From an uncultured Anaerolineaceae bacterium (GTDB taxonomy: Bacteria; Chloroflexota; Limnocylindria; Limnocylindrales; CSP1-4), in contig CAZABC010000002.1 of assembly GCA_964483405.1 (NCBI GenBank), positions 108,355-172,354 on the forward strand: a stretch of DNA of 64,000 nucleotides. Direction: 5' to 3'. The first letter of the stretch is position 1, and each line of letters begins with the position of its first letter. The notes beneath the pieces are model-generated. The model had not been told where the DNA came from. It saw only the letters and a program-made list of their open reading frames with translations, and searched no databases. This document shows positions 6,078 through 57,242 of the stretch, one piece after another. A program made the position numbers and the translations under genes.

Positions 6078-6086
6078 GCGCGCGGC

Positions 6087-8291: not shown

Positions 8292-8304
8292 CGGACCGCC
8301 ACGC

Positions 8305-8875: not shown

Positions 8876-9298
8876 ATGCCAAGCGGTCCGCACGACGAGG
8901 CGCTCCGGTCGGTCCCGCTGTTCGCCGGCGCGGAGCCCGACGACCTCGGCGCCATCGCCGCCATCGCCGCCGAGGTCGAGTTCCCGGCGGGCCGCGTCAT
9001 CGTCCGCCAGGGCGACCCGGCGAACGGCCTCTTCCTGATCGTCAGCGGCGGGGTCCACGTCGTCTCCGACGGCGAGACGGTCGCCTCGCTCGGGCCGGGG
9101 GAGGTCTTCGGCGAGCTCGCGGTCCTCGATCGCGGCCCGCGGGTCGCGTCGGTCGTCGCCGACTCGCCGACGCGCTGCCTCGCGGTCGCGGCCTGGGACG
9201 CCGAGCGGCTCCTCCTCGAGCGCCCAACGCTCGCGGTCGCCGTCGCCCGGACCCTCGCCGTCCGCCTCCGGAAGCGCGCGGAGGACCATCACCACTGA
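8876..9298 (+). CDS. Stand-alone cyclic nucleotide-binding domain protein (canonical cassette)
   Basis: IVRQGDPANGLFLIVSG...GEVFGELAVLDRGPRVASV; 140 aa; GGAGG RBS. Confidence 0.88.
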   Translation: MPSGPHDEALRSVPLFAGAEPDDLGAIAAIAAEVEFPAGRVIVRQGDPANGLFLIVSGGVHVVSDGETVASLGPGEVFGELAVLDRGPRVASVVADSPTRCLAVAAWDAERLLLERPTLAVAVARTLAVRLRKRAEDHHH

Positions 9299-9354
9299 CC
9301 GAGCCCGGACCGCCCGCGAGCGACACCCCCGGCGTCCCGGGCGATCCGGGGCCG

Positions 9355-27906: not shown

Positions 27907-28202
27907 TGCCCGAGTACACGCTCGCCTCGATCGTCGCCCTCGGCCTGGCCGCCGTCGGCGCGCTGGTGGCGGGCCTGCACCGCCGGCGGGCGACCTGGCT
28001 GACATTGGCGGTCTTCGGCGCCTTCACCGTCGTCTTCGACATCGTCCTGACCGGCCTGCCGATCGTGACGTACGGCGACGGGACGACGACCGGCATCGCG
28101 ATCGGGCCGATGCCGGTCGAGGACCTCCTCTACGGCTGGGCCCTCTGCCTCACCGCGCTCGTCGCCTGGGCCGTCGCCGGACGGCGCCGCGCGACCCGCT
28201 GA
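27906..28202 (+). CDS. Heterodimeric lycopene/C50 carotenoid cyclase subunit (CrtYd/Yf-like)
   Basis: YTLAS...TVVFDIVLT...GPMPVEDLLY; TGATG overlap with the upstream gene. Confidence 0.8.
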   Translation: MPEYTLASIVALGLAAVGALVAGLHRRRATWLTLAVFGAFTVVFDIVLTGLPIVTYGDGTTTGIAIGPMPVEDLLYGWALCLTALVAWAVAGRRRATR

Positions 28203-28206
28203 CCCG

Positions 28207-38043: not shown

Positions 38044-38146
38044 CGTGCCACAGGGCGGCCGGCCCGACACCGGGGCGGCGAGTACCATCGCCACGGTCGG
38101 CGCTCCCGGGCCGGACGCGCCGCGCAGGTACGACGGAGGTACGAAG

Positions 38147-39199
38147 GTGACCGACGACCGGCGGCCGCGCGATGGTCGAGCCACCTGGGCGGCCGTCCGG
38201 GAGGCCGTCGCCCGGGCGGTCGTCGGCGGCGACTCGGCGCTCCGGCTCGTCCTCGTCGCGGTCCTCGCCGACGGCCACGCGCTCATCGAGGACGTGCCCG
38301 GCATCGGCAAGACGCTCCTCGCCCGGGCCGTCGCCCGGGCGCTCGGGATCCGGACCGCCCGGATCCAGGGCACGCCGGACCTCCTCCCGGTCGACGTCAC
38401 CGGTGGCTCGATCCTCGAGGGAGGCTCCCTCCGGTTCGTCGAGGGCCCGGTCTTCACGAACCTCCTCCTCGTCGACGAGATCAACCGGGCCACCCCGCGG
38501 ACGCAGTCCGCGCTGCTCGAGGCGATGCAGGAGCGTCAGGTGTCCGTCGAGGGTGTCACCCGGCTCCTGCCCGACCCGTTCCTCGTCCTGGCGACCCAGA
38601 ACCCGGTCGAGTACGAGGGGACCTTCGCCCTGCCCGAGGCCCAGCTGGACCGGTTCCTGCTCCGCATCCGGCTGGGCTACCCCGACGCCGCGGGCGAGCG
38701 GGCGATCGCCCGGCGCTACCGCGAGGTCGCGGAGCCGCTCGAGCTCGTCCCGGCGGTCCTCGACGGCCCGACGATCGTCGGGCTCCGCGAGCAGGTCCGG
38801 GGGATCCACGTCGCCGATGAGGTCGAGGGCTACGTGGTGGCCCTGACGGCGGCGACGCGCGAGCACCCGCAGCTCTCGCTCGGCGCGAGCCCGCGGGCGA
38901 CCGTCGCGCTCTACCGCGCGGCCCAGGCGTGGGCGTTCCTCGACGGGCGCGACTTCGTCCGACCCGACGACGTGAAGGCGATGACCCCCGCGGTCCTCCC
39001 CCACCGGCTCGTCGTCGATCTCGACCAGGGGCTCCGTGGCGCGACGGCGGACGGGATCGTGGCCGGGCTCCTCGCCTCGGTCCCCGCGCCGCCGGGACCC
39101 GACGCGGCCGGCAACGGTGCGGACCAGGCCGCGGTGACGGCCCCGTCGGCGGTCGCCCCGCCCGGCACGGAGCGATACCGGCGCCCGGACCCCGCGTGA
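38147..39199 (+). CDS. MoxR family AAA+ ATPase
   Basis: GHALIEDVPGIGKT, DLLPVDVTG, LLVDEINRATPRTQSALLEAMQE, ATQNPVE, GASPRA. GGAGGT RBS. Confidence 0.93.
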   Translation: MTDDRRPRDGRATWAAVREAVARAVVGGDSALRLVLVAVLADGHALIEDVPGIGKTLLARAVARALGIRTARIQGTPDLLPVDVTGGSILEGGSLRFVEGPVFTNLLLVDEINRATPRTQSALLEAMQERQVSVEGVTRLLPDPFLVLATQNPVEYEGTFALPEAQLDRFLLRIRLGYPDAAGERAIARRYREVAEPLELVPAVLDGPTIVGLREQVRGIHVADEVEGYVVALTAATREHPQLSLGASPRATVALYRAAQAWAFLDGRDFVRPDDVKAMTPAVLPHRLVVDLDQGLRGATADGIVAGLLASVPAPPGPDAAGNGADQAAVTAPSAVAPPGTERYRRPDPA

Positions 39200-39203
39200 C
39201 GCG

Positions 39204-40430
39204 GTGACCGGTCGGATCGCCCTCGGCCTCGCCGTCGCGGTCGCCGGCAGCCTGCTCGCTGCCCCGCTCGTCGTCGCCCTCGGTCTTGCCATCGCCCTGG
39301 TCGACGCGATCCGGCTGCCCTGGCGCCGGCGCGGCCTCGACGACGTCGAGTACAGCCGGCGGCTGTCGACCGATCGGGCGGTCGTCGGCGACGAGATCGC
39401 CCTCGACGTCAGCGTCTGGAACCGCAAGCGCCTGCCGCTCGCCTGGCTGCGAGCCGAGGACGCGGCGAGCGTCGGGCTCGAGGTGCGAGAGCGCGAGCTC
39501 ACCTCGGTCGAGGGCGTCGGGCGGGCACTGGTCAACGCCTGGACGCTCGCGCCGTACGAGCGCGTGGTCCGCCACTTCCACCTCGTCGCGGCCCGACGGG
39601 GCGTCCACCAGCTGGGACCCGTCCGGCTCGCCGTCGGCGACCTGCTCGCCGGACAGGCCGGCGAGGCCGCGCGACCGAGCGTCGACCGGATCGTCGTCCG
39701 GCCGCGGATCGTGCCGGTCGCCGGGCTGGAGCCGGCCGCCCGGTGGGGCGGCCTCGACCGGGCCAGGCGTGGCCTGCTCGAGCAGCCGCTCGCCTACGCG
39801 GGGGTCCGCGACTACCAGCCGGGCGACCCGCTCCGGCGGATCCACCAGCGGGCGTCGGCGCGGCTCGGCCGGCCCGTGGTCAAGCGGTTCGACCCGGCCC
39901 GGGAACGCGAGGTCCTCGTGGCCCTCGACATCCAGACGGTCGAGGGTCCGGCCTGGATGCCGGTCGCCGACGACGACCGGGTCGAGGAGCTGTGCGTCGT
40001 CGTCGCGTCCGTCGCCCGGCGCCTCCGGGCGGACGGCGCAGCCGTCGGGCTCGCGGTCGCGGGCTATGCGGGAACGGTCCGGCCGGTCGCGATCCTGCCG
40101 CCCGCGGCATCGGCCGGCCAGGTCCCCCGGATCCTCGACCTCCTGGCCCGGCTCGCCCCGTACCCGTCGGCGAGCTTCGACCGGCTCCTCGGGACGTTAC
40201 CGCGGGTGCTCGCGCCGGGCGCCGAGATCCTGCTCGTGTCGGCTCGCGACCCGGCCCCGTTCCTCGCTGCCGCCCGACGCCTCGGCGCGATGGGCTATGG
40301 CGTGACGCTGCTCGCGATCGGGCCGGGCGCCGACGGAGCCGCCGATCGGGCTCGGGCGGCCCGGATCGCGGCCCGGGTGGGCCGGCTGGACGGCACGTGG
40401 GCCGACGCCCGCGGCCTGGCGGTCGCGTGA
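39204..40430 (+). CDS. DUF58 (VWA-like) MoxR partner protein
   Basis: GVRDYQPGDPLRRIHQRASAR, VKRFDP; follows moxR. Confidence 0.88.
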   Translation: MTGRIALGLAVAVAGSLLAAPLVVALGLAIALVDAIRLPWRRRGLDDVEYSRRLSTDRAVVGDEIALDVSVWNRKRLPLAWLRAEDAASVGLEVRERELTSVEGVGRALVNAWTLAPYERVVRHFHLVAARRGVHQLGPVRLAVGDLLAGQAGEAARPSVDRIVVRPRIVPVAGLEPAARWGGLDRARRGLLEQPLAYAGVRDYQPGDPLRRIHQRASARLGRPVVKRFDPAREREVLVALDIQTVEGPAWMPVADDDRVEELCVVVASVARRLRADGAAVGLAVAGYAGTVRPVAILPPAASAGQVPRILDLLARLAPYPSASFDRLLGTLPRVLAPGAEILLVSARDPAPFLAAARRLGAMGYGVTLLAIGPGADGAADRARAARIAARVGRLDGTWADARGLAVA

Positions 40431-41800
40431 GCGCGGCGACGTCTCCGCCCGCGGTCGCCCGACCGGCCCGGACGGGGGCTGCCCTCGACTTCGCGCCATC
40501 GCTCCTCGTCGCGCTCGCGGAGGGTGCCTGGGTCGCCGCGATCTACGCGGTCGTGCAGGCGGCGGCGGGCGGGCCGGCACCGCTCGGGCCGGTCGCGATG
40601 GGCCTCGCGGCGCTCACCGGCATGCTCGTCGCCCGGCGCTGGGGCCCGGGGCTCGGCGACCGCTGGCCGACCGTCGCCCTCGCCGGCGTCATCGCCGCCG
40701 GGGCGATCGGCTGGCTCGTCGTCCCGGCGGTCCTCGGCGAGCTCCTCGCCCTCGACCCGGACGGGGCCGCCCGGGCGCACCCCGGTGGCTGGCTGGCCGG
40801 GCTCGCCTTCTTCCGCGGGACCGCCCACGCGCGGGCGGTCCGGTCCGACGAGGTCACCGCCACGCTCATCGAGGTCGGCCTGCCCGGCCTGATCCTGCCG
40901 GTCCTCGCCGCCGGGATGCTCCCGGAGCCGGAGCGCTCGGCCGCGCTCGGCGGCGTGACCGTGGCGGTCGTCGTCTTCCTCGTGGCGGGCACGCTCGCCC
41001 TCGCCGTCACCCGGATCGCCGCGGTCGGTCGCTCGGCCGGCTTCGACTGGCGGCGCAACCGGGCCTGGCTCGGCCTCGTCGCCCTCCTCGCCGTCGGGGT
41101 CGTCGTCGCGGCGCTGCCGGCGGCGGTCGTGGTCGGCCCGGCCGTCCGCGTCCTGATCGCGCTCTTCGCCCTGCCGGTCCTCGCCGTCGGGACGCTCGCG
41201 GGGCTCGGCCAGGTCCGGACCAGGACGCTCATCGGGCTGCTCGTGCTCGCCGTCGTCCTCGTCATCCTCGCGGCGCTCGCCGGTGGGCCTGGCCAGCTCG
41301 CCCCCGAGCCGGCCGAGCCCGGCGGCGTCGGCGGCGACGACGGCGAGTCGACGCTGGTCACGATCTCCGGCGGCGGGCTGCTCGTCGTCCTCGTCGTCGT
41401 CGGGATCCTCGTCCTGGCCCGGCTCTGGATGCGCGAGGCGCTCGGGCCGGTCGAGGGCGACGTCGGCGAGGAGCGGACGATCGACACGACCGCGCCGGTC
41501 CGCGTCGTCGCGGCGCCGGGGCGCCGTGGTCGACGCCGGACGGCCGAGCCGGTCGACGCCGCCGGGGCCTACCTCGCCCTCCTCGACGACCTCGAGCCCG
41601 ACGCCGACCGGCGCCGCCGAGACGGGGAGACCCCGGCCGAGCATGCCGGTCGGCTCCGTCGCGCCGGGCTCGGGGCATTGGGCATCGACCTGCTCGCCGC
41701 GGACTACGAGCTCGTGCGGTTCGCCGGCCGGCCGCTGCGACCGAGCGAGACGCGGCGGGCGCTCGACCGCTGGCGGCGGCTCCGGCGCGGCCGACGCTGA
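40427..41800 (+). CDS. Membrane protein with C-terminal DUF4129-like domain
   Basis: Many TMs, then RRDGETPAEH...YELVRFA; GTGA overlap with the DUF58 gene. Confidence 0.75.
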   Translation: MSAATSPPAVARPARTGAALDFAPSLLVALAEGAWVAAIYAVVQAAAGGPAPLGPVAMGLAALTGMLVARRWGPGLGDRWPTVALAGVIAAGAIGWLVVPAVLGELLALDPDGAARAHPGGWLAGLAFFRGTAHARAVRSDEVTATLIEVGLPGLILPVLAAGMLPEPERSAALGGVTVAVVVFLVAGTLALAVTRIAAVGRSAGFDWRRNRAWLGLVALLAVGVVVAALPAAVVVGPAVRVLIALFALPVLAVGTLAGLGQVRTRTLIGLLVLAVVLVILAALAGGPGQLAPEPAEPGGVGGDDGESTLVTISGGGLLVVLVVVGILVLARLWMREALGPVEGDVGEERTIDTTAPVRVVAAPGRRGRRRTAEPVDAAGAYLALLDDLEPDADRRRRDGETPAEHAGRLRRAGLGALGIDLLAADYELVRFAGRPLRPSETRRALDRWRRLRRGRR

Positions 41801-44282: not shown

Positions 44283-45548
44283 TCAGTGGACCTCGGGCTC
44301 CTGGAGCGGGAGGACCATCGCCGCGAGCGTGACCAGCAGGGCACCACCCGCGAGGATCCCGACGACGATGAGCCACTCGATGATCGTCGGCACGTACCAG
44401 TACGACGTCGCGAACGAGCCGACGGCTCCGCCGGTGTCGCCGACCGACACCCCCGGTGGGATCCCGACCGGCAGGTACGACAGGCCGTTGAGCAGCAGGT
44501 TCAGGCGGTGGACCCAGATCCCGACGATCACGATCCCGGCCGCCAGGGCGACCCAGCGCGGATCGGTCCGGAGACGGCGGACGACCAGGATCGCGAACGG
44601 GATGGCCAGCCCCACGAGCGCCTCGAACCAGAAGATCGGGGCGTACGGACCGACGAGGAGCCGATGGATGGCGTCCGCCTCTTCCGGCGCACCCGGGTAG
44701 GCCGCGGTGAGCATCTCGGCGAAGACGAAGAAGGCCTCGACCACGATGAACACCCCGAGCAGCCCACCGAGGAAGGCGACGAGGTCGTTCCCGAACCGGA
44801 CGACGCCGAACCTCCGGAAGGCGAGAGCCATGAGGATCACGAGCCCAAGACCCGAGACGAGCGCCGAGCTGATGAACATCGGGGCCATGATCGCCGAGTA
44901 CCAGAAGCCGCGGCTGATCTGCAGCCCGAAGATCCAGGCGGTGATCGAGTGGAGCAGGATCGCCGCCGGCAGGGCGACCCAGGCGAGCGCCCCGATGAGC
45001 CGCTGGTCACGGGCCGCCGCGCCGTCCGACGCCGACGTCCCGAAGGCGAGCCAGCTGCCGCGTCGGGCGAGGTCGGCCCGGGTGTAGAGCCAGACGTACG
45101 TCGCCGACATCCCCATGTAGATGAAGACGATCGCGATGTCCCAGATCATCGGCGAGGTCGGGTTCGGGTGCAGCAGGATGTTGAGGATGCGGTCCGGCCG
45201 TCCGAGGTCCGGGAGGATGAACGTCGCCGCGAGGATGATCGCGACGGTCGCCTCGAGGACCGCGACGCGGACGATCGGCTTGAAGATCGTCGCCCCGAAC
45301 AGCCGACCGGCCGACGCGACGATCAGGCCGCCGGCCGACAGGCCGACGAAGAACATGAAGAACAGGATGTACTGGCCCCACATGACGATGTTCGTCAGGC
45401 CGGTCACGACGAGGCCCTGCGAGAACTGGTAGAGCCAGGCCGCGACCCCGACGCCGATGGCGACGAGGAGGAGGAGCAGCCAGATCGCCAGGCCGCGGCG
45501 GATCGCGGGGCGTCGTGGGGTGGCTGCCGGGATGGCGCCAGCGCTCAT
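44283..45548 (-). CDS. NrfD/PsrC-type membrane anchor (quinol-interacting subunit)
   Basis: WGQYI..F.FFVGLSAGG, DLGRPDR, SPMIWD, ILLHSITAWIFG, WYSAIMAPMFISSAL; about 10 TMs. Confidence 0.9.
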   Translation of the reverse strand: MSAGAIPAATPRRPAIRRGLAIWLLLLLVAIGVGVAAWLYQFSQGLVVTGLTNIVMWGQYILFFMFFVGLSAGGLIVASAGRLFGATIFKPIVRVAVLEATVAIILAATFILPDLGRPDRILNILLHPNPTSPMIWDIAIVFIYMGMSATYVWLYTRADLARRGSWLAFGTSASDGAAARDQRLIGALAWVALPAAILLHSITAWIFGLQISRGFWYSAIMAPMFISSALVSGLGLVILMALAFRRFGVVRFGNDLVAFLGGLLGVFIVVEAFFVFAEMLTAAYPGAPEEADAIHRLLVGPYAPIFWFEALVGLAIPFAILVVRRLRTDPRWVALAAGIVIVGIWVHRLNLLLNGLSYLPVGIPPGVSVGDTGGAVGSFATSYWYVPTIIEWLIVVGILAGGALLVTLAAMVLPLQEPEVH

Positions 45549-46252
45549 AGCTCGTCCTTCCGCCGTGGGGGAAGGTAGGTCACCGATGGCCGGGTGCCGA
45601 GGGCCTCGAGGAGGACCTCGCCCTCTCGCTCGCGGATGAGGCGATTGACCCGGCTGTCCGGGTCGTTGAGATCGCCGAAGATCCGGGCCTGGGCCGGGCA
45701 GGACCAGACGCACGACGGGACCTGGCCCTCGGCGAGGCGGTGGACGCACATCGTGCACTTCTCGACCGTGCCGACCGGCCGGGCGGCGACCATCCCGAAC
45801 TCGATCGGGATCGGCTGGTCCTGCTGGCCCCAGTTGAAGGTCCTGACGCCGTAGGGGCAGGCGATCATGCAGTAGCGGCAGCCGATGCAGCGCTCGCTGT
45901 CCTGCATGACGATGCCGTCGTCGCGGTGATAGGTGGCCTGGACGGGGCAGACCTTGACGCACGGGGCGTTGCCGCAGTGCTGACAGGCCAGCGGCACCCA
46001 GTGCATCTCGGGCTCGCCGTGCTCGAGTCGTGGCGTGTCGAGCGCCTCGCCGTCGGTCAGGATCCGGTTCCACCAGTTCCCGATCGGGATCTGGTTCTCC
46101 GACTTGCAGATGACGGCGCACGACCAGCAGCCGATGCAGCGCTCGGTGTCGACGACCATGCCCCAGTGGGGTGCGTCAGTGTGGGGCTCGATCTCGCCCC
46201 AGGCCCGCGAGGCGGGCGGCAGGGCCTCGATCGGGGAGACCTTGTCAGGCAT
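45545..46252 (-). CDS. 4x[4Fe-4S] electron-transfer subunit (NrfC/PsrB/DmsB-type)
   Basis: CIGCWSCAVIC, CQHCGNAPCVKVCP, CIGCRYCMIACP, KCTMC...PSCVWSCP. Confidence 0.93.
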   Translation of the reverse strand: MPDKVSPIEALPPASRAWGEIEPHTDAPHWGMVVDTERCIGCWSCAVICKSENQIPIGNWWNRILTDGEALDTPRLEHGEPEMHWVPLACQHCGNAPCVKVCPVQATYHRDDGIVMQDSERCIGCRYCMIACPYGVRTFNWGQQDQPIPIEFGMVAARPVGTVEKCTMCVHRLAEGQVPSCVWSCPAQARIFGDLNDPDSRVNRLIREREGEVLLEALGTRPSVTYLPPRRKDEL

Positions 46253-48809
46253 CGGTCCCCTCCCCGGTCCGGCGGACCTCGACCCGGCAGTCCTTCCAGC
46301 CGGTCGACGGGCACCACATGTTCGGGACGTTGTGGATCTCGTGGATCGGGTTGACCGCCGACGAGGTCAGCTCGTTGACCCCCTTGCCCTTCCGGAACTG
46401 GCGCGGCCACCACCCTTCGTACAGGGTCGCGGCGCCCCGCCGGGCTCCCTCGGTGACGTGAGCCCAGCACTCGACCGTGCCCCGGGTGTTGAGGATCTCG
46501 ACGGTGTCGCCATCGGCGATCGACCGGGCGGCGGCGTCGTCGGGGTGGAGCTGGACGATCGGGCGCCCGCCGTGGATCTCCGCCAGCCAGGGGTTGTTCG
46601 CGTACGAGGAGTGGATCCGCCACTTCGAGTGCGGCGTCAGCAGGGTCAGCGGCCAGGTCGCGGGATCGTGGACCTCATCGTCCTTGGGCGGCAGGTAGGT
46701 CGGGACCGTCTCGCCGAGCTCGATGAAGCGGTCCTCCTCCTTGTAGAACTCGATGCGGCGGGTCGGGATGAACGCCGCCGTCGCCTCGAGTGGCGCCGGC
46801 AGCGAGCGTGGCGGGAACGGCTCGAGGCGCTCGATCTGGCCGAGGAACGGGATGTCCGGGTCGGGCACGTTGAGCCGGACCGGACCGGCCTTGAGCTGCT
46901 CGAGGGTGATCCCCTCGGTCGGTCCGCCGGGGCCGCCACCTGCCGCGAGGATCGCCTCGATCGCGGCCTCCTCGTCGAGGTCGAACCAGGCCGCGGCGGC
47001 CTCGGGGTCGATCCGGCGGACGAGCTCCTGCCACACCCAGAGCTCGGAGCGGGACTCGCCGACCGGGTCGATCGCTGGCTGCTGGAGCTGGAGGAACGGG
47101 TGGAGCGGCGTCGCCGTGAGGTCCCACTTCTCGTACCAGGTCGTCGCCGGCAGGACGATGTCGGCCCACTCGACGGTGTGGGTCCGCTGGTGATCGATGA
47201 CGACGATCAGGTCGAGCGCCGCCAGTGTCTCGTGGAAGTGGTTGACGTCCATCCCCTGGACGAACATGTTGGCGAAGGCGCAGACGAGGGCGTGCCAGCC
47301 GTTCTCCGGGTACGGAACGTCGGGATGCATCGTCGGCGTCCGACCGTGGGCGAAGTAGATGCTCGGGACGATCTTCGCCTTGATCTCGTGCTCGTTCCCG
47401 ACGTTGTACCAGGGCGCCGTGTTGACCCGGACCTTGTACTGGCCGACGTAGACCGAGAACCCTCCGCCGGACCGGCCGATGTTGCCGGTCAGGGCCGCCA
47501 GCAGGGCCAGCGCCCGGCCGGTCTGGTCACCGTGGAACCAGTGGTTCGAGCCACCGCCCATCAGGATTGCCGCGGGCTTGGTCGTCGCGTAGGCGCGGGC
47601 GATGGTCGTGATCCGGTCGGCGGGGATCTCGCAGACCTCGGCCGCCCGCTCCGGAGTCCAGCGCTCCACCTCGGCCCGGACCAGCGCGAAGCCTGGCGTG
47701 GCCGAGACCGTCGAGCCGTCCGTGAGCCGGAGGTCGTAGACGCCCGCGAGTGCCGATCGGACGCCCGGGCCGCCGAGCCGATCGGTCCCGACCTCGACGG
47801 GTCGACCGCGGACCTCGTCCCAGGCGACGAACGCCTCTGCGCCCGGGGTGGCCTGCGGCCCGACTCCCGCCAGCTCCGACCAGCGCAGTCGCCTGCCGGT
47901 GTCGAGGCTCACGAGCAGCGGGCCATCGGTGTAGGTCCGCATGAACGCCAGGTCGGCCAGGCCCTCGCCGAGGATGACGTTCGCCATCCCAAGCGCGAAC
48001 GCCGTATCGGTGCCGGGCCGGATCGCCAGCCAGGCGTCGGCCTTCGAGGCGGTCGGAGAGTAGTTCGGGTCGACGACGACGAGCTTCGCCCCCGCTTCGA
48101 TGGCGTCGAAGAGGAAGTGGACGTCGGGGATCCGGGTCTCGACCGGGTTGCTCCCGATCAGCAGGAGAAAGCGACTGTTCGCCCAGTCCTTCGCCTCGTG
48201 CTCTGCGTTCTGGACGCCGAAGGTGATCGGCATCCCCATCGGCAGGTCGCCGTTGAAGTCGAAGCTCGTGCCGTGGATCATCCCGAGGGTCGCGCAGGCC
48301 CGGTAGTTGGCGCCCTTCTGGATGTAGCCGGAGCCCGGGACCTGGTCGAAGACGTGGATCGAATCCCAGCCGTACGTTTCGCCGATCCGCTTCAACTCGG
48401 CCGCGATCGTGTCGAGGACCTCGTCCCAGCTGGCCTCCCGGAACTCGCCCGAACCACGAACCCCGGTCCGCACGAGCGGGGTCGTGATCCGATCCTCGCC
48501 GTAGATGTGGAGCTGGTAGCTGATCCCCTTCATGCACCCGCGGGGGTTGTATGCGCCGTCGGGATAGTCGGCGGCCTGCTGGACCTTGACGACCTTGCCG
48601 TCCCGGACGAAGGCGAGCTGGCCACAGCTGCCGGTGCAATTCGGCGAGCAGGTGGTCCGGACGACCTTGTCGACCGGCAGCGACGGCTCGATGTCGTAGT
48701 CTCGCCCGGCATGGACGGGCGGCGGGTCGAGGACCGGCAGCGATGCGCCGACCGCCGCGCCGGCGACGCCAGCCGCACCCTTGAGGAACGTCCGGCGATC
48801 AAGCGGCAT
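46245..48809 (-). CDS. Tat-exported Mo/W-bisPGD oxidoreductase catalytic subunit, DMSO reductase family, type II (Asp-ligand) like
   Basis: Tat signal MPLDRRTFLK; FS0 motif TCSPNCTGSC...NPRGCMKG; FNGDLP ligand region; GSNPVETRIPD; TPHSKWRIHS molybdopterin-dinucleotide domain. Confidence 0.9.
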   Translation of the reverse strand: MPLDRRTFLKGAAGVAGAAVGASLPVLDPPPVHAGRDYDIEPSLPVDKVVRTTCSPNCTGSCGQLAFVRDGKVVKVQQAADYPDGAYNPRGCMKGISYQLHIYGEDRITTPLVRTGVRGSGEFREASWDEVLDTIAAELKRIGETYGWDSIHVFDQVPGSGYIQKGANYRACATLGMIHGTSFDFNGDLPMGMPITFGVQNAEHEAKDWANSRFLLLIGSNPVETRIPDVHFLFDAIEAGAKLVVVDPNYSPTASKADAWLAIRPGTDTAFALGMANVILGEGLADLAFMRTYTDGPLLVSLDTGRRLRWSELAGVGPQATPGAEAFVAWDEVRGRPVEVGTDRLGGPGVRSALAGVYDLRLTDGSTVSATPGFALVRAEVERWTPERAAEVCEIPADRITTIARAYATTKPAAILMGGGSNHWFHGDQTGRALALLAALTGNIGRSGGGFSVYVGQYKVRVNTAPWYNVGNEHEIKAKIVPSIYFAHGRTPTMHPDVPYPENGWHALVCAFANMFVQGMDVNHFHETLAALDLIVVIDHQRTHTVEWADIVLPATTWYEKWDLTATPLHPFLQLQQPAIDPVGESRSELWVWQELVRRIDPEAAAAWFDLDEEAAIEAILAAGGGPGGPTEGITLEQLKAGPVRLNVPDPDIPFLGQIERLEPFPPRSLPAPLEATAAFIPTRRIEFYKEEDRFIELGETVPTYLPPKDDEVHDPATWPLTLLTPHSKWRIHSSYANNPWLAEIHGGRPIVQLHPDDAAARSIADGDTVEILNTRGTVECWAHVTEGARRGAATLYEGWWPRQFRKGKGVNELTSSAVNPIHEIHNVPNMWCPSTGWKDCRVEVRRTGEGTDA

Positions 48810-49032
48810 CGCGGACCACCCTGCGCTCCATCGGGCAGCGCGCGTCGAGCATCGTGTGCGACAGGTCGCCGCAGCGAGCGCAGCGCGTCGCGCTCGAACC
48901 CGAGGCCGACGGTCGGGCGGCGTCGACGGCCGACCGGACCAGACGAGCGGCCGAGACCGCCACGGCCCCGGCGACAGCGCCGATCGGAGCCAGAACGGCG
49001 ATGCCGAGGAGGTCGCGGCGCGTGAGGGGCAT
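48799..49032 (-). CDS. Small twin-arginine protein with a C-x2-C-x4-H-x6-C motif
   Basis: MPLTRRDLLG, hydrophobic stretch, CARCGDLSHTMLDARC. GAGGTG RBS; the stop overlaps the start of the molybdoenzyme gene. Confidence 0.75.
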   Translation of the reverse strand: MPLTRRDLLGIAVLAPIGAVAGAVAVSAARLVRSAVDAARPSASGSSATRCARCGDLSHTMLDARCPMERRVVRDAA

Positions 49033-49165: not shown

Positions 49166-49432
49166 ATGTCGCCACTCGATCCTGCCCTCGAGGCAGACCT
49201 CGCCGCCTGGCTCGTCCGGTACGACGCCGTCCTCCCCGAGCCAGGATCGGACAGCCTCGGTGGCGACGAGCGCGAGCTCATCCTGGACGTCGCCCGGATC
49301 GCCGCCCACCGCGGGGTCCGCGCCGCGGCGCCGGTGGCGACGTACCTCGCTGGGATGGCGGCCGCCGGACTGCCCGCCGACGAGCGGGTCGCGCGCCTGC
49401 GGGCACTGGTCGCGGCCCTCGACACCGACTGA
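49166..49432 (+). CDS. DUF6457-like small protein (often associated with MobA/molybdenum cofactor genes)
   Basis: ELILDVARIAAHRGVRAAAPVATYLAG; GGAGGA RBS; TACGAT -10 at 49133. Confidence 0.7.
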   Translation: MSPLDPALEADLAAWLVRYDAVLPEPGSDSLGGDERELILDVARIAAHRGVRAAAPVATYLAGMAAAGLPADERVARLRALVAALDTD

Positions 49433-50289: not shown

Positions 50290-52218
50290 CTACCGGGCGA
50301 GCCGCTCTGGCTTGGCGCCGACCCAGGCGAGGAGCTCGGCCCGCGAGCGCGTGTTGAGCACCGCGGACGGCTCGACCCACGCCCGTCGCGCCTGGCCCAC
50401 GCCGAACCACACGTCGCGGAGCTCCTCGGTCCGATGGGCGTCGGAGTCGATCGAGACGAGACAGCCCGCGGCGACGGCCCGCCGCGCCCGCTCGGCCGAG
50501 AGGTCGAGGCGGTGCGGCGAGCCGTTGATCTCGAGGACGGTGCCGGTCCGCGCGGCGGCGTCGACGACCGCGTCCCAGTCGAGGTCGAGGTCGTCGCGGC
50601 CCTGGATCATCCGCCCCGCCGGGTGGGCGATGACGTCGACGTGCGGGCTGCCGATCGCGCCGAGGACGCGGACGGTCAGCTGGGCCCGCGGCTGGCGTCG
50701 GCCGACGTGGAGCGAGGCGACGACGACGTCGAAGCGGGCGAGGACCTCGTCGGGGAGGTCGAGGGCGCCATCGGCCCGGATCTCGAGCTCGCAGCCGTGG
50801 AGCAGCCGGAAGCCCTCCGGGGGCGTCCCGGGCGGCGCCGTCCCCGCGTCCTCCTCGGCGGCGAACCGGGCATTGAGCGCGTCGACGATCGTCCGCTGCT
50901 CGGCGAAGCGAGCCGGGTCGAGCCCGCGGGCGATGCCGAGGCTCATCGTGTGGTCGGTCAGGACCTGGTAGGCGTAGCCCCGACGGCGCGCGGTCTCCGC
51001 CATCGCCTCGATCGGGTGGACCCCGTCGGTCCAGTCGGAGTGGCTGTGGAGATCGCCCCGGAGGTCCTCGACCCGGACGAGCGTCGGAAGGCGACCGGCC
51101 AGCGCCGCCTCGATCTCGCCGGCGTCCTCGCGGAGCTCGGGCTCGATGAACGGCAGGTCGAGGAACGCGTACGCCTCGGCCTCGGTCGCGAACGTCCGGA
51201 GCTCCGCGCCCGCGCCAGGGTCGGCGTCGTCCGGCCCGAGCCGGAGATAGCCGTGCTCGGACAGGCTCCAGCCGCGGTCGCGGGCCATCGCCCGGAGCCG
51301 GACGTTGTGCTCCTTGCTGCCGGTGAAGTGGATCCGATAGGTCCCGCCTGCGCCCGGCGGCATGATCATCAGGTCGACCTGGGGGCCGTCGCGCAGCGTG
51401 ACGGCGGCCTTGTGGCTGCCCGCCCCCAGGATGCCCTCGACGGCCGGCAGCGCCGTGAACGCGGCGACGAGGGCCGCCGGGTCGTCGGTCTCAGCGAGGA
51501 TGTCGAGGTCGCCGACGGTCTCCCGTCGACGCCGGTAGGACCCCGCGGCCTCGACCGACCGGACGCCGGGCACGGTCCGCAGCGTCGCGAGCAGGCCCCC
51601 CACGATCGCCTCGGCCCGGTCGAGGAGGAGCCGCCCGCCGCGGGCCTCGAGCGCGGCGATGCCGGCGAGGATCGACGCCTCCGACTTCGCCGAGAACCCC
51701 CGCACGCTCCGGATCCGGCCGGCCTCCGCCGCTCGACGCAGATCCTCGATCGACTCGACGCCGAGGACCTCGTGGACGAGCCGGACGGTCTTGGGACCGA
51801 CCCCCGGCACGCGCAGCAGGTCGATGAGCGTCGGCGGGATCTCCGCGCGGAGCCGCTCGTGGTAGGCGAGGCGGCCGGTCATCGCCAGCTCGGCGAGCTT
51901 GTCGTGGATCGCCCGGCCGACGCCGGGGATCTCGGGCGGACGGCCCTCGCGGTACAGCCGGGCCACGTCGTACGGGCTCCGTTCGATCGCGTCGGCGGCG
52001 CGGTGGTAGGCGACGGTCTTGAAGACGAGCTCGCCCTTGACCTCGAGGATGTCTCCGATCTCGTGGAAGATCCGCCCGAGGTCGGCGTTCGAGAGCGGCG
52101 GCGGCTCGGCGGTGCGGTCGGCGGCACGGTCGGCGGGCGGCTCGGCGGGCGGCTCGGCGGGTAGCTCGGCGGGCGGCTCGGCGGCGGTCGGCGGCGGGGC
52201 GGGCTTATCGTCGGCCAT
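50290..52218 (-). CDS. polX: DNA polymerase X family with PHP domain (polymerase/3'-5' exonuclease)
   Basis: HhH repeats, GSYRRRRETVGDLDIL, QVDL, FTGSKEHN, PHP GDLHSHSDWTDG...LTDH...IAHP...DSDAH. Confidence 0.95.
   Translation of the reverse strand: MADDKPAPPPTAAEPPAELPAEPPAEPPADRAADRTAEPPPLSNADLGRIFHEIGDILEVKGELVFKTVAYHRAADAIERSPYDVARLYREGRPPEIPGVGRAIHDKLAELAMTGRLAYHERLRAEIPPTLIDLLRVPGVGPKTVRLVHEVLGVESIEDLRRAAEAGRIRSVRGFSAKSEASILAGIAALEARGGRLLLDRAEAIVGGLLATLRTVPGVRSVEAAGSYRRRRETVGDLDILAETDDPAALVAAFTALPAVEGILGAGSHKAAVTLRDGPQVDLMIMPPGAGGTYRIHFTGSKEHNVRLRAMARDRGWSLSEHGYLRLGPDDADPGAGAELRTFATEAEAYAFLDLPFIEPELREDAGEIEAALAGRLPTLVRVEDLRGDLHSHSDWTDGVHPIEAMAETARRRGYAYQVLTDHTMSLGIARGLDPARFAEQRTIVDALNARFAAEEDAGTAPPGTPPEGFRLLHGCELEIRADGALDLPDEVLARFDVVVASLHVGRRQPRAQLTVRVLGAIGSPHVDVIAHPAGRMIQGRDDLDLDWDAVVDAAARTGTVLEINGSPHRLDLSAERARRAVAAGCLVSIDSDAHRTEELRDVWFGVGQARRAWVEPSAVLNTRSRAELLAWVGAKPERLAR
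52100..52183. repeat. 12-bp tandem repeat, 7 units, in the 5' end of polX
   Basis: GGCGGCTCGGCG and variants; encodes AEPP/AELP/ADRA units. Confidence 0.8.
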
Positions 52219-52243
52219 GGGGACCGATGGTACGCTCGGCGCG

Positions 52244-53149
52244 ATGTCGCACGTCCCGACGATCCACGTCGGCCGCTTCGAGATCGCGACGATCTGCGAG
52301 GGGTTCGCGCCGCTCGCCCTCGCCGACGAGCTGCCGGGGCAGGCGGTCGACTGGACGGCCGAGCGCCGCCGCCAGCCATGGGCGTTCCACGACGACGCCA
52401 CCTGGCCATGGCATGTCCATGCCTTCATCGTGCGGTCGGGCTCGACCGCCGTCCTCGTCGACACCGGCACGGGCGCATCGGGCCCGTACGTCCCGTGGGC
52501 GACTGCCGACCCGGAGGCCTGGGCCGGCGTCGACCCGGCGGACATCGCGCACGTCGTGCTGACCCACCTCCACGCGGACCATGCCGGCGGGGCGACCGTC
52601 CGCACCGCCGGCGGGGCGGCGGTCCGCACCGCCGGCGGGGGGACCGTCCGCATCGCCGCCGGGAGGATCGCCCGCAGCGCCGCCGATGCCGCCGCGACGG
52701 CCCCGCGCTTCCCGAACGCGACGGTCCACGTCCATCCGGCCGACTGGGCGTTCTTCGCCGACGCGGACGACGAGCAGGACTACGTCAGCCGGCAGGCGCT
52801 CCGCTCGGTCGAGACGGCCGGAGCGCTCGATCTCGACCCGCGCGACCGCGAGCTCGTCCCCGGGATCGCCGTGCGACACACGCCGGGTCACACGCCCGGC
52901 CACCGCAGCGTGGTCGTTCGCGACGGTGACGCCATCCTGCTGCTGGCAGGCGACCTCCTCCACCTGCCGACGCAGGCCGCCCGACCGTCCTGGCCGTCCA
53001 GCCATGACGAGGACCCGGCCGTCGGGGTGGTCTCCCGCGTCGCCCTCCTGCGTGAGGCGCGACACGGCAGGTGGCGGGTCGGCGTCCCGCACTTCGCTGC
53101 GCCGTTCGGGCGGGTCGGCGACAGGGGCTGGCGGAGCGACCCCGGCTGA
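52244..53149 (+). CDS. Metallo-beta-lactamase fold hydrolase (AHL-lactonase/MPH-like)
   Basis: VLVDTG, THLHADHAGG, TPGHTPGH, LAGDLLH. TACGCT 7 nt upstream of the ATG. Confidence 0.88.
   Translation: MSHVPTIHVGRFEIATICEGFAPLALADELPGQAVDWTAERRRQPWAFHDDATWPWHVHAFIVRSGSTAVLVDTGTGASGPYVPWATADPEAWAGVDPADIAHVVLTHLHADHAGGATVRTAGGAAVRTAGGGTVRIAAGRIARSAADAAATAPRFPNATVHVHPADWAFFADADDEQDYVSRQALRSVETAGALDLDPRDRELVPGIAVRHTPGHTPGHRSVVVRDGDAILLLAGDLLHLPTQAARPSWPSSHDEDPAVGVVSRVALLREARHGRWRVGVPHFAAPFGRVGDRGWRSDPG
52583..52678 (+). repeat. In-frame 24-bp tandem repeat (3 good units plus 1 degenerate) inside the MBL gene
   Basis: GCCGGCGGGGCGACCGTCCGCACC / GCCGGCGGGGCGGCGGTCCGCACC / GCCGGCGGGGGGACCGTCCGCATC, encoding AGGATVRT AGGAAVRT AGGGTVRI. 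Confidence 0.85.
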
Positions 53150-53622: not shown

Positions 53623-55083
53623 TCAGCCGGCGATGACCCGGTCCCGACCGGCCTTCTTCGCCCGGTACAGCGCCTGGTCGGCCCGCTCCACCAGCCGGTC
53701 GATCGGTTCGTCGGGCACCTTCTGGACGGCGACGCCGACCGACACGGTCACGCGCGACACGCCGAAGGGCGCGAGGTCGAGCCGACCGACCGCGCCGCGG
53801 GCGCGCTCGCCGATCTCCGTCGCCACCTCGGCGGTCGGGTTGCGGAGCAGGACGACGAACTCCTCGCCCCCGTAGCGAGCCGGCACGTCGTCGTCGCGGA
53901 CGGCGGTCGCGATCGCCTGGGCGACGGCCCGCAGGACCTCGTCACCGGTCGCGTGGCCGTAGCGGTCGTTCAGCCGCTTGAAGTGGTCGATGTCGACCAT
54001 CATCACGCCGACCGCGTCTCGCGACCGACGCCGCCGGGCAAGGAGGCCGCAGAACTCGTCGAAGTAGCGACGGTTCGGCAGTCCGGTCAGCGCGTCGGTG
54101 CTCGCGCGGAGCTCGGCGGCCCGGTAGCCCTCCGCGCGGCCGAGGGCGATCGAGGCCTCTCCGGCCGCCTCGTCGAGGAAGCGGCGGGTCGCCGCCGGCC
54201 ACGGGCCGACCGTGCGCCTGGACAGGACGAGCGCGCCGACCACCGTCGCGTCGACGACGATCGGCGCCGAGAGCGTGTCGCGCAGCCCGTAGATCGACGC
54301 GACGCGGTCCGCCAGCCGGTCGGCGAGGCGGGCCGCTGCGACGGGGTCTCGCCCGCTGCCGGCCGGTCGCGCATGCCCGGGCCCACCGCGCCCTGCGCCG
54401 GCCCCGAGCGGTGGCCGTCCACCCGGCGCCCTCGCGGTGTCCGGCGATGCGGCGGCCTGAGCCGAGCGGTCCGTCGCCGGCGCGGCGCCCGCCGCCGTCC
54501 CGTCCGAGGTCGCGCCGGTCGCCGCCGCCGGCCAGGTCACCGCCGGTGCCGGCATGTCGACCTCGACATCGACCGGCACGGGCGCCCGCCGGCGGCCGGC
54601 GAGCTCGGCCGGGGTGAGTGGCGCCTCGATGTCCGTCAGCGGCAGGTTCGTCGTCGAGCTGGCCACGCCGGGGCGGGCGCTGACGAGCATCGCCTCGAGC
54701 CGGGCCGGGTCCGTCCGGCGCCGGACGACGACGACGTGATCGGCCTCGACCGTCGCCGCGAGCTCGCGGGCGATGGCTCCGACGATCGCGTCGGCCGACA
54801 GCGAGCGCGAGAGCCCGCGGACGAGCCGGGCGGTGCGCTCGGCCTCGCCCCGTCGGCGCGCCTCGAGCGCCCCGACCGCCCGGCGGTTCGCGACGGCGGC
54901 CGACCCGGCGACACCGATGAGCGCCAGGGCGAGCAGGTCTAGCGCGCTGGCGCCGCCCGAGAGACGGGCGAGGGTCAGGAGCCCCAGGACGGCGAGCGAG
55001 CCGACGAAGACCCACCAGCTCCGGCGGATCAGCAGGTCCTCCGGGCCGGTCGGGTCGTCGGGTTCGAGCGGGGGCGCCTCCAC
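53623..55083 (-). CDS. Membrane-anchored GAF-like plus GGDEF diguanylate cyclase
   Basis: Two N-terminal TMs, TDALTGLPNRRYF, DIDHFKRLNDRYGH, RDDD I-site, ARYGGEEF. Confidence 0.92.
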   Translation of the reverse strand: MEAPPLEPDDPTGPEDLLIRRSWWVFVGSLAVLGLLTLARLSGGASALDLLALALIGVAGSAAVANRRAVGALEARRRGEAERTARLVRGLSRSLSADAIVGAIARELAATVEADHVVVVRRRTDPARLEAMLVSARPGVASSTTNLPLTDIEAPLTPAELAGRRRAPVPVDVEVDMPAPAVTWPAAATGATSDGTAAGAAPATDRSAQAAASPDTARAPGGRPPLGAGAGRGGPGHARPAGSGRDPVAAARLADRLADRVASIYGLRDTLSAPIVVDATVVGALVLSRRTVGPWPAATRRFLDEAAGEASIALGRAEGYRAAELRASTDALTGLPNRRYFDEFCGLLARRRRSRDAVGVMMVDIDHFKRLNDRYGHATGDEVLRAVAQAIATAVRDDDVPARYGGEEFVVLLRNPTAEVATEIGERARGAVGRLDLAPFGVSRVTVSVGVAVQKVPDEPIDRLVERADQALYRAKKAGRDRVIAG

Positions 55084-55180
55084 GTCGGGGTCAAGGATGC
55101 GCCCGGCGCGGGGTGGCGTCCACTCGGGCCGACCGGTACCTCCGGCGACGGGCGACCGGTACTTCGGTACCGGGCGTGGC

Positions 55181-57103
55181 TCAGGCAGGCCCGGTCGCCG
55201 GTGCGACCACCCGGTCCCGGTCCCTCGTCGCCCGCCCGCGACGCGCCGTCGCCGCCGGTCGCTCGATCCCGTGGCCGCCCGTCCGCTTCACCCCGTACAG
55301 ACCGGCGTCGGCCGTGGCGATGAGCGCGGTCGCGGTGAGGCCGTCGTCGGGGCAGGTCGCGACGCCGATCGAGACGCCGATCGGCACGGCGCCGCGGCCC
55401 TCGGGCTGGAATGCCCGGTCGGCGAAGGCTCCGACGATGCGCTCGCCGACCCGGGCGGCGGCTGCAGCGTCGGTGTCGGGCAGGATGACCGCGAACTCGT
55501 CGCCGCCGTAGCGCGCCGGGACGTCGGACGCCCGGAGCGTCGAGCGGACGACATCGGCGACCCAGGTGAGGACGCGGTCGCCGACGATGTGGCCCAACGT
55601 GTCGTTGACGGCCTTGAACTCGTCCAGATCGAGCATCAGGACGCTGACCGGCGCGCGCGTCCGGCCGGCGCGGAGCAGCTCCTCGCCGAGGCGCTCGTGG
55701 AAGTAGCGGTGGTTGAAGAAGCCGGTCAGCGGATCGCGGTCGGCGAGATCGCGCGCCCGCTCGTACAGGATCGCGTTCTCGAGCGCGATCGCCGCCTCGT
55801 TCGCCATCGTCCGGACGAGACCGAGCTTGGGGCCCTCGAGGTCCAGCCGCTCGGTCCCGTAGAGCTCGACGAGCCCGATCGACTCGTCCTTGGCGACGAG
55901 GGGCAGCATGATCATCGTCCGCTGGCTGTGCCGGGCGAGATACGCCCGCTCGTGCGGGTCGGCCGCCGGGTCGTCGACCTGGACGACGACCTCCGCCTTG
56001 GTCTCGAGGACGCGGCGGGTCTCCGGATACTCGCCCAGGCCGAAGGCGTCCTGGATGTTCTCGGGCGACTCGACCGGGTAGTAGCCAACGGTCAGGACCC
56101 GGTCGCCCGCCCGGTCCCAGGTCGAGATCCCGCACTCGTCGGCGCCGACCGCCTCGGCGAGGTGGCGGGCCATCAACTCCCCGACCTGGCGCGGGTCGAG
56201 GCTCTTCGAGAGCGACGAGCTCATGTCGAGCAGGCTGCGGAGCTCGGCGGCGAGGCCCGACGTGCGGGTGACCAGCCGCGCCGTCTCGAGCGCCGTCGCC
56301 GCCTGGTCGGCGAGGATCGTCAGGAGCCGCAGGTCGTCCGGCTGGAACTGGTGGAGGCCGAGCTTGGAGAGCGTGATGACCCCGACGACCCGGTCGTCGT
56401 AGCGCATCGGCACGACGAGCATCGACTCGTCGACGTCCTCGGTACCCGGGATCGTCTGGCCGCGTGGATCGGTGTTCGCGTCGTCGATGAGCAGCGGGAC
56501 GCCGTGGAGGGCGACCCAGCCGGTGAAGCCCTGGCCGACCGTCGTCCTGAGCAGCTCGAGGTCGACGTCGTCGTACGCCCCGACCCGACCCTCGAAGGCG
56601 ATCGGGACGAGCTGGTCGGGCGGCTCGAGGGTGTAGACACGGGCGTTGTGGTAGTCGAGGATCCGGCCGGTCTCCTCGACGATCGCCCGGCCGACCGCCT
56701 CGACCGAGGGCGCCCGGCTCATCCGGGCGGACGCGGCCTGGAGGACCGCGAGGTGGCCGGTCTTGGCGTGGACCCGCCGGGCACCGAGTCGCCAGGCGAT
56801 GAACATCGCGCCGGCGATCGCCAGCGGCATGTCGAGGGTCAGGTCGAACTGCGGGTACTGGATGTGGTCGATGATCCAGGCGGCGGCCCCGATCCCCATC
56901 AGCACGATGCCACCGACGAGCCAGGCGTCCTTGATCAGCTCGAGGGCCCGCAGCAGGCCGGAGCGCCAGACGATCGCCCGCCCACGGGCACGGGCACGCT
57001 CCGCGCCCGAGGCGTGACCGGGCGGTGTCGCCGGCACGACCGCGGGCGCGACGGTCGCTCCTCCCGGGCTCGGCGCCGCGGGGCGGTCGATCTGCGCGCT
57101 CAT
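55181..57103 (-). CDS. Membrane-anchored GAF-GAF-GGDEF diguanylate cyclase
   Basis: Two TMs, GAF domains (ESMLVVPMRY...VGVITL; IMLPLVAK...IGLVEL), DPLTGFFNHRYF, RASD I-site, ARYGGDEF. Confidence 0.92.
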   Translation of the reverse strand: MSAQIDRPAAPSPGGATVAPAVVPATPPGHASGAERARARGRAIVWRSGLLRALELIKDAWLVGGIVLMGIGAAAWIIDHIQYPQFDLTLDMPLAIAGAMFIAWRLGARRVHAKTGHLAVLQAASARMSRAPSVEAVGRAIVEETGRILDYHNARVYTLEPPDQLVPIAFEGRVGAYDDVDLELLRTTVGQGFTGWVALHGVPLLIDDANTDPRGQTIPGTEDVDESMLVVPMRYDDRVVGVITLSKLGLHQFQPDDLRLLTILADQAATALETARLVTRTSGLAAELRSLLDMSSSLSKSLDPRQVGELMARHLAEAVGADECGISTWDRAGDRVLTVGYYPVESPENIQDAFGLGEYPETRRVLETKAEVVVQVDDPAADPHERAYLARHSQRTMIMLPLVAKDESIGLVELYGTERLDLEGPKLGLVRTMANEAAIALENAILYERARDLADRDPLTGFFNHRYFHERLGEELLRAGRTRAPVSVLMLDLDEFKAVNDTLGHIVGDRVLTWVADVVRSTLRASDVPARYGGDEFAVILPDTDAAAAARVGERIVGAFADRAFQPEGRGAVPIGVSIGVATCPDDGLTATALIATADAGLYGVKRTGGHGIERPAATARRGRATRDRDRVVAPATGPA

Positions 57104-57242
57104 GGCAGCCCGATCGTGGCAGCCGACGGCCCGATCGGACGCCCATCCGTGGTACCAGCCGTGGCGGGACCGTGGTACCCGCCGCGGCGCGCCGGAGGCG
57201 GGCGCCGCCGACCGGCGCCATGGGCCCCGGCCCGCAGGAGGG

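Follow-up and report, generated by a model that had tools for sequence, protein, structure and literature searches.

The DNA analyzed here, called the window throughout, is a 64-kb stretch (64,000 nucleotides (nt), G+C ~75%) of contig CAZABC010000002.1 from an uncultured Anaerolineaceae bacterium. At positions 44283-49032 its minus strand holds four overlapping genes in the order small gene-A-B-C, which encode a small protein with a twin-arginine translocation (Tat) motif and a CCHC motif, the catalytic subunit A of a molybdoenzyme of the MopB family, an iron-sulfur subunit B and a membrane subunit C of the NrfD family (Table 1). Consecutive genes overlap by 11 nt (small gene/A), 8 nt (A/B) and 4 nt (B/C), and the four therefore form one translationally coupled operon. 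A Shine-Dalgarno-like sequence, GAGGTGA, is found close 5' of the start of the small gene. Subunit A starts with MPLDRRTFLKG, and the start of the longer listed open reading frame (ORF) is not the real one. A first-pass annotation of this DNA had read the region as a hybrid respiratory molybdoenzyme, based on the Tat signal and the CSPNCTGSC and GDLP motifs of A, on subunit B, on the NrfD protein and on the small gene, and all of these features are present at the locus. It had also reported that no TorD/NarJ chaperone is linked to the genes. This holds for the whole 64 kb, where neither tblastn nor a hidden Markov model (HMM) built from 11 NarJ/TorD chaperones detected any such gene. The operon is likewise without an EB_dh, cytochrome or PF02613 gene.

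Table 1. Coordinates of the operon, of its motifs and of two further genes of the window.
Feature	Position	Strand	Description
Small subunit gene	48799-49032	-	77 amino acids (aa), ATG start
Catalytic subunit A	46245-48809	-	2565 nt, 854 aa, Tat-exported MopB protein
Electron-transfer subunit B	45545-46252	-	708 nt, 235 aa, four [4Fe-4S] motifs
Membrane subunit C	44283-45548	-	1266 nt, 421 aa, NrfD family
Tat signal peptide region of A, MPLDRRTFLKGAAGVAGAAVGASLPVLDPPPVHA	48708-48809	-	R5 and R6 invariant in 51 homologs
FS0 [4Fe-4S] motif CSPNCTGSC	48624-48650	-	A residues 54-62; C54/C58/C62
GDLP motif of A	48240-48251	-	A residues 187-190; D188 is the predicted Mo ligand
CCHC motif of the small subunit	48835-48882	-	C51-x2-C54-x4-H59-x6-C66, zinc-knuckle-like
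moaA	16208-17401	-	Radical_SAM and Mob_synth_C domains; ~27 kb off the operon
DUF6457 gene	49166-49432	+	Pfam E 1e-10; divergent from the operon

Subunit A carries the Pfam domains Molybdopterin, Molydop_binding and Molybdop_Fe4S4, together with a TAT_signal match of 22.5 bits that falls just below the cutoff of 22.7. The AlphaFold2 model of A, built on 51 homologs, has a mean predicted local distance difference test (pLDDT) score of 81.7 and a predicted template modeling (pTM) score of 0.85. Residues 1-39 have low pLDDT, as is expected of a signal peptide. Across the 51 homologs, which reach down to 42% identity, C62, C92, the twin arginines and the six residues N186, G187, D188, L189, P190 and M191 are invariant, and C54 and C58 are kept in at least 90%. 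The fourth ligand of the FS0 cluster is C92, located within NPRGCMKG. In a HMMER alignment to PcrA (PDB 4ydd) the CSPNCTGSC motif was paired with HLVNCTGAC. The all-cysteine FS0 motif that the first-pass annotation had put forward is present but not distinctive, as C-x3-C-x3-C is also found in E. coli DmsA, in haloarchaeal DmsA and in several neighboring type II clades. The same HMMER alignment pairs D188 of A (NGDLP) with Asp170 (YGDHP), the Mo ligand of PcrA, and D188 also aligns with the CDLP/SDLP motifs of Thermus and Haloferax NarG. From these alignments Asp188 is predicted to ligate the molybdenum in A, in line with the earlier expectation of an Asp, rather than a Ser or a Cys, at the ligand position.

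When A was compared with all PDB sequences the first match was PcrA (E 9e-111), followed by NarG, EbdA and NxrA, with PsrA far behind (E 1e-51). The best NCBIfam model was TIGR03479 (DMSO_red_II_alp, type II alpha; 517 bits), the next ones were dmsA_ynfE (315 bits) and narG (283 bits), and the ArrA model reached 112 bits. The same relatives were found by predicted fold: Foldseek gave the model of A query-normalized template modeling (TM) scores of 0.83 with PcrA, 0.80 with NxrA, and 0.78 with both EbdA and NarG, and at most 0.65 with members of other MopB families (Psr, Arr, Dor, Nap and Fdh; PsrA 0.64). PcrAB of Azospira (4ydd) is accordingly the nearest solved relative of A by both sequence and fold, and PcrA shares with A the Asp ligand, the FS0 spacing and periplasmic Tat export. 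In contrast to A, the first FS0 ligand of PcrA is a His, and PcrB is a type II beta subunit of 333 aa; PcrAB is soluble, takes its electrons from cytochromes and needs the chaperone PcrD, whereas the window enzyme has an NrfD anchor. NarG resembles A in its (C/S)DLP Asp ligand motif, in its fold and in lineage. NarGHI and haloarchaeal pNarGH nevertheless differ from the window enzyme, as NarG is 980-1250 aa long with a His-type FS0, NarH is large and holds a 3Fe-4S cluster, and these enzymes come with NarJ and with either NarI or cytochrome b, Rieske and EB_dh proteins.

Homologs were collected from 1.8 billion representative proteins, and a tree was made of the window A, 130 full-length matches or family members and ten references (141 sequences, 728 columns). 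The references were Thermus and Haloferax NarG, Alicycliphilus ClrA, a cld-linked PcrA-like protein from an Alisedimentitalea plasmid, Haloferax and Halobiforma DmsA, E. coli DmsA, a MopB protein of Novosphingobium and two of Moorella. The smallest clade that joins A with NarG, ClrA or PcrA-like proteins excludes haloarchaeal DmsA in 93 of 100 neighbor-joining bootstraps. Taken together, sequence, tree and predicted fold agree that A is an enzyme of the Nar/Pcr (type II) lineage, as the first-pass annotation had proposed. The window family itself was recovered in 100/100 bootstraps, and so were two wider groups, one with the database protein P0121 (55% identical) and one that also takes in P0122, P0123 and Moorella A. 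At the loci of P0121, P0122, P0123 and Moorella, A is followed by a B of 217-260 aa and then by an NrfD protein of 406-443 aa; the P0121 and P0123 loci add a NarJ-type chaperone, and that of P0123 also a multihaem cytochrome. Loci from neighboring clades are built in another way: P0133 and P0215 are accompanied by a large B, NarJ and EB_dh, and P0133 in addition by cytochrome b, Rieske and cytochrome c proteins. The window A is a member of a clade of short (~850 aa) type II enzymes with an all-cysteine FS0, which have a small Psr-type B and an NrfD protein as partners.

Orthologs of the Moorella A (66-86% identical) are found in M. thermoacetica, Carboxydothermus hydrogenoformans, Desulfosporosinus and Desulfitobacterium, and that of M. 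thermoacetica was named "Perchlorate reductase subunit alpha" by one submitter. In a review that names these same taxa, Moth_1908, Cyh_2082, Desde_0947 and Dsmer_2075 have been described as enzymes "related to Af_0176 of A. fulgidus", and Af_0176 as a periplasmic Nar-type enzyme of the dimethyl sulfoxide (DMSO) II group that is proposed to reduce perchlorate to chlorite (PMC6299022). The AF0173-AF0176 proteins are induced on (per)chlorate (PMC3949148). The relation of the Moorella/Carboxydothermus branch to AF0173-0176 is thus one that a review draws, and not one from direct sequence comparison. These relatives in Moorella, Carboxydothermus and Desulfitobacterium (Moth_1908, CHY_2082, Desde_0947) make up the sister clade of A, and they resemble the window enzyme in having a Tat-exported A of ~850 aa, in which the FS0 motif is CSPNC and the ligand motif GDLP, a small four-cluster B and an NrfD anchor. 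We take AF0174 to be an NrfD protein as well. Unlike the window locus, the Moorella-type loci have no small Tat/CCHC gene detected upstream, their A is 43-45% identical to the window A, and the hosts of the Moorella-type and AF0176 enzymes are anaerobic Bacillota and Archaea, whereas the window-type hosts are Chloroflexota and Actinomycetota.

The claim of a novel hybrid composition does not stand against this comparison, since the sister clade of Moorella, Carboxydothermus, Desulfitobacterium and Desulfosporosinus shares the layout of A, small B and NrfD. The first-pass annotation had itself stated that a characterized clade of the same composition would remove the novelty, and the Moorella-type enzymes are in part such a case. 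The A-B-NrfD combination is not new, nor is the operon a new enzyme architecture. What is new is the subfamily itself, together with its conserved small Tat/CCHC partner and the lack of a linked NarJ/TorD chaperone. The earlier interpretation was thus right on the anatomy and overstated on novelty: the locus represents a new, widespread and uncharacterized subfamily of a known clade with a short type II A, a Psr-type B and NrfD.

A link between the four genes and the chlorite dismutase gene cld was also considered and rejected, as cld belongs with another short type II group, made up of P0124 and the Alisedimentitalea plasmid. The loci of this group hold cld, A, a B of 276-289 aa and NarJ, with a cytochrome c gene on the plasmid. 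The B of the cld-linked group is 30% identical to the window B, and NarJ and cytochrome c take the place of NrfD. The plasmid, the conjugative plasmid NZ_CP123588 of Alisedimentitalea scapharcae, carries at 5960-11489 (locus L086) cld followed by genes for a short type II MopB protein of 848 aa, an iron-sulfur (FeS) protein of 289 aa, TorD and cytochrome c. Its MopB protein is the top-scoring plasmid match to A (430 bits), and the cluster resembles a mobile island for (per)chlorate reduction that carries a short PcrA-like enzyme.

The partner subunits come from other families. B has four complete Cys groups (C39xxCxxCxxxC, C90xxCx4CxxxC, C122xxCxxCxxxC and C166xxCx11CxxxC), which fits four [4Fe-4S] clusters and not the 3Fe-4S cluster of type II beta subunits. 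It matches the 4Fe-4S dicluster domains of Pfam, and among NCBIfam models it passes that of DsrO (216 bits vs. a cutoff of 200), ahead of ArrB and TtrB, whereas it stays at 98 bits on the type II beta model, with its cutoff of 481. The PDB comparison gave the same order, with ArrB (154 bits) and PsrB (143) ahead of EbdB (90), PcrB (74) and NarH (64). B is 60% identical to the B of the P0121 locus and, as it has no signal peptide, it is presumably exported together with A. C is an NrfD protein (Pfam E 4e-55) with ~10 transmembrane segments predicted by a hydropathy scan and no haem motifs, and it is presumed to hold the quinol site. Its top NCBIfam match is DsrP (140 bits, under the cutoff), and among solved structures it is nearest to the ActC subunits of alternative complex III (6f0k_C, 6btm_C); PsrC gave no match to C at E <=0.001 in the search of PDB sequences. 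B is therefore of the Psr/Arr/DsrO type and C of the ActC/DsrP type, and neither is a classical type II partner of the kind formed by a large beta subunit and a cytochrome. As they stand beside a type II A, the description of the enzyme as a hybrid is correct. PsrABC of Thermus (2vpw) and ArrAB share with the window enzyme the type of B, the A-B-NrfD architecture and the outward orientation, but PsrA and ArrA represent another catalytic lineage. In Psr and Arr the molybdenum ligand is a cysteine.

The partners of A also give reason to consider an S- or N-oxide reductase, acting on DMSO or trimethylamine N-oxide (TMAO), perhaps on methionine sulfoxide, and working like haloarchaeal DmsABC. The first-pass annotation had named the dmsEABCD operon as a parallel in gene order, and by tblastn against plasmids we recovered the dms operons of Haloferax volcanii pHV3 and of Halobiforma, which are laid out as regulator, small gene, MopB protein of 843 aa, DsrO-annotated FeS protein, NrfD and TorD. 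The order small gene-A-B-C is thus the same, and the likeness extends to the proteins: Haloferax DmsB is 55% identical to B (E 1e-79) and DmsC 38% identical to C (E 3e-74), the FS0 of haloarchaeal DmsA (CAPNCRGKC) is all Cys as in A, and Haloferax DmsA aligns with A over its full length at 32% identity. In addition, dmsA_ynfE is the second NCBIfam model for A, some of the homologs are annotated as DMSO reductase subunit A, and DMSO is common in soil and fresh water. The parallel holds for B and C but breaks down for A and for the small protein. Haloferax DmsA has NVGL in place of GDLP, and the Asp proposed as ligand in haloarchaeal DmsA (PMC6650914) aligns at the equivalent of D166 of PcrA and not at D188 of A. 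In the tree, DmsA falls outside the Asp-ligand clade that A forms with Nar, Clr and Pcr-like enzymes. The fold neighbors of A are the four solved type II enzymes and not DorA, TorA or MtsZ, the window's small protein has no relation to DmsE, and the DmsD chaperone of the haloarchaea has no counterpart here, as no DmsD/TorD gene is linked. Altogether we regard an S- or N-oxide as an unlikely substrate.

The small protein has the twin-arginine motif TRRDLL, a hydrophobic stretch and then the pattern RP...G.S...C..CG...H.ML...CP. In an alignment of 42 sequences R40, P41, G45, S47, C51, C54, G55, H59, M61, L62, C66 and P67 are invariant, and R5 and R6 are kept in at least 90%. Small proteins of Acidimicrobiia have the spacing C-x2-C-x4-H-x4-C, which is that of a canonical zinc knuckle. 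A profile search brought together 103 clusters of this family, all named hypothetical and none with a Pfam domain, and the window protein itself showed weak matches to Pfam zf-CCHC_6 and to the LIN-28 and NCp7 knuckles. In the AlphaFold2 model (pLDDT 77.5) a long helix (residues 5-39) is followed by a non-regular C-terminal part with pLDDT ~80. The protein is probably a Tat-inserted single-helix subunit with a zinc knuckle on the outer side, and a structural or anchoring role is our guess.

Several other identities were considered for the small protein. A role as haem c carrier was rejected, as the motif is CxxCGxxxH and not CxxCH, and so was a known PDB fold, as phmmer and Foldseek found only insignificant zinc-finger/knuckle matches in the PDB. 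The protein is not a DmsE homolog either, since BLASTP produced no alignment and DmsE is acidic and has neither a Tat motif nor Cys. A function of the small gene as replacement for NarJ is weakened by the P0121 locus, which has both NarJ and a comparable upstream ORF. This ORF (L094 5601-6008, plus strand), located 5' of P0121, encodes RRRGLL and CGSCGGYH...CP, and its product is possibly a diverged homolog of the window's zinc-knuckle protein. In Haloferax, a gene for a hypothetical protein of 70 aa with a hydrophobic helix likewise precedes narG (L083 6561-6773, L084 6492-6704), but this protein has no sequence kinship to the small protein of the window.

The subfamily is common in uncultured bacteria. 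More than 100 database clusters are 71-86% identical to A, and their names are generic and inconsistent, including DMSO reductase (subunit A), nitrate/nitrite oxidoreductase and "selenocysteine-containing dehydrogenase". A locus scan with one genome per species returned 80 loci, nearly all from metagenome-assembled genomes (MAGs) of Chloroflexota (Limnocylindria and "Chloroflexia") and Actinomycetota (Thermoleophilia, Gaiellales, Acidimicrobiia and Nitriliruptoria), with A 62-83% identical to that of the window. Three loci are from Bacillota, among them Moorella mulderi DSM 14980, and here A is 43-45% identical. By tblastn, B adjoins A in 77 loci and C does so in 73. The four-gene cassette, with the small gene immediately 5' of A, recurs in ~64 of 82 related loci, which is far beyond chance. 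Clustering of the flanking ORFs of the 80 loci revealed no conserved neighbor beyond the four genes, whether cld, regulators, mobA, DUF6457 or a chaperone, and an ORF of the NarJ/TorD type was found in the flanks of just 2 of 81 related loci; the four genes therefore make up a self-contained cassette. Our results show that the window subfamily, whose members are 62-86% identical, is widespread in uncultured Chloroflexota and Actinomycetota and has no name. Literature searches on the Chloroflexota/Limnocylindria clade, NarM and Moth_1908 found little.

The high identity across phyla (62-86%) suggests one specific substrate, and this could be an oxyanion other than nitrate or (per)chlorate, such as selenate, tellurate, arsenate, iodate or bromate. 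The selenate reductase SerA is among the type II enzymes, ArrB is the top solved relative of B, and the soda lakes and soils from which the sequences come are rich in such oxyanions. A, however, stands farther from ArrA than from PcrA, NarG and the Moorella-type enzymes, and no ars, selenium or other accessory genes were linked to the cassette in the 80 loci. We consider this reading improbable.

The reading we favor, with a probability of about 0.6, is that the operon encodes an outward-facing, membrane-bound, quinol-driven reductase with nitrate and/or chlorate/perchlorate as its most likely substrate. It would be a complex iron-sulfur molybdoenzyme of four subunits. From what is known of this enzyme family, we infer the topology, the electron path, the direction of the reaction and the substrate as follows. 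A and B would fold and gain their cofactors in the cytoplasm and leave it jointly via the Tat system, on the signal peptide of A. Once exported, they would dock on the NrfD-type C at the outer face of the cytoplasmic membrane. C would oxidize menaquinol, and the electrons would pass through the four [4Fe-4S] clusters of B to FS0 of A (C54, C58, C62, C92) and from there to the Asp188-ligated molybdenum-bis(pyranopterin guanine dinucleotide) cofactor (Mo-bisPGD), where an oxo-substrate would be reduced. The first-pass annotation had named no single substrate, and in this we agree; we infer nitrate and (per)chlorate because these are activities known or proposed for the nearest relatives.

The direction of electron flow could be the opposite one, if the enzyme is an oxidative dehydrogenase that feeds the quinone pool from nitrite, dimethyl sulfide, arsenite or an organic substrate. 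The type II lineage includes Nxr, Ddh, Ebd and the steroid C25 dehydrogenases, the NxrA among the top fold matches to A is that of Kuenenia, periplasmic NxrA likewise has Cys as its first FS0 ligand according to the first-pass annotation, and the host lineages are mostly regarded as aerobes. The cassette, however, has no linked haem b gamma subunit (EB_dh), cytochrome c, Rieske or cytochrome b protein, partners that the classical type II neighbors P0133 and P0215 do have. An NrfD protein with a Psr-type B normally serves as quinol dehydrogenase for a reductase. Actinomycetota and Chloroflexota use low-potential menaquinone, which would make the oxidation of high-potential couples uphill and therefore disfavors a dehydrogenase. 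It appears very unlikely to us that the enzyme works in this direction.

Several observations weigh against a nitrate or (per)chlorate reductase. The 517 bits of A on TIGR03479 are below the cutoff of 984.75, so that A is outside the curated type II core, and the model fits A well solely over the N-terminal half (residues 47-462). The tree is a neighbor-joining tree on a MAFFT alignment and not a maximum likelihood tree. At the gate positions of PcrA, A has S for F164, F for Y165 and Y for W461, and its specificity could therefore differ. The members of the window subfamily are all from uncultured organisms, and with the Moorella-type enzymes A shares only the 43-45% identity given above. For these relatives the functional support is indirect, coming from proteomics of A. 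fulgidus and growth tests in related organisms. The hosts are mostly taken as aerobes, B and C are most like those of a DMSO/TMAO reductase, and in the 80 loci the cassette has no chlorite dismutase, nitrite reductase or regulator gene linked to it. One further outcome would be that the small Tat/CCHC protein is a true fourth subunit, new to molybdoenzymes, and that the substrate or role of the subfamily departs from that of its anaerobic relatives; it may, for example, serve a dedicated oxyanion or sulfoxide respiration, or detoxification, in otherwise aerobic soil and freshwater bacteria. We see this as possible but doubtful.

The enzyme is common and strongly conserved among Limnocylindria, Thermoleophilia, Acidimicrobiia and Nitriliruptoria, which are abundant uncultured lineages of soil, fresh water and soda lakes, and annotation pipelines name it inconsistently. 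Should the enzyme prove to be a periplasmic Nar-type reductase of nitrate or (per)chlorate, estimates from metagenomes of the potential of these host groups to reduce nitrate or chlorate would change. The zinc-knuckle Tat subunit and the missing chaperone also raise a concrete question on how such complexes are assembled and anchored.

In the remainder of the window, the first-pass annotation had pointed to moaA and a DUF6457-like gene as signs of cofactor supply. Both genes are present, but the support they give is weak: at its distance from the operon moaA tells that the organism makes the molybdenum cofactor and nothing beyond that, and the DUF6457 gene, although it also adjoins the cassette at locus L002, is not a neighbor conserved across loci. 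In the Chloroflexia MAG of that locus (L002/L013 12561-18538) the cassette adjoins a classical type II operon that encodes a 1156-aa A, a 425-aa B, NarJ and an EB_dh haem subunit, and both enzyme types therefore coexist in one genome. Elsewhere in the window there are tandem repeats at 52096-52195 and 52583-52682, with periods of 12/36 and 24 nt. They lie in the 5' part of a PolX-PHP gene (50290-52653, minus strand), at its overlap with the annotated start region of a plus-strand gene for a protein of the metallo-beta-lactamase fold. The plus strand also carries a cluster of genes for a MoxR-type AAA ATPase, a DUF58 protein and a DUF4129 membrane protein (37592-41800), and a single ORF of 723 aa in which UbiA prenyltransferase and family 2 glycosyltransferase domains are fused (28069-30240). 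Two neighboring genes for GAF-GGDEF diguanylate cyclases are located on the minus strand at 53623-57340.

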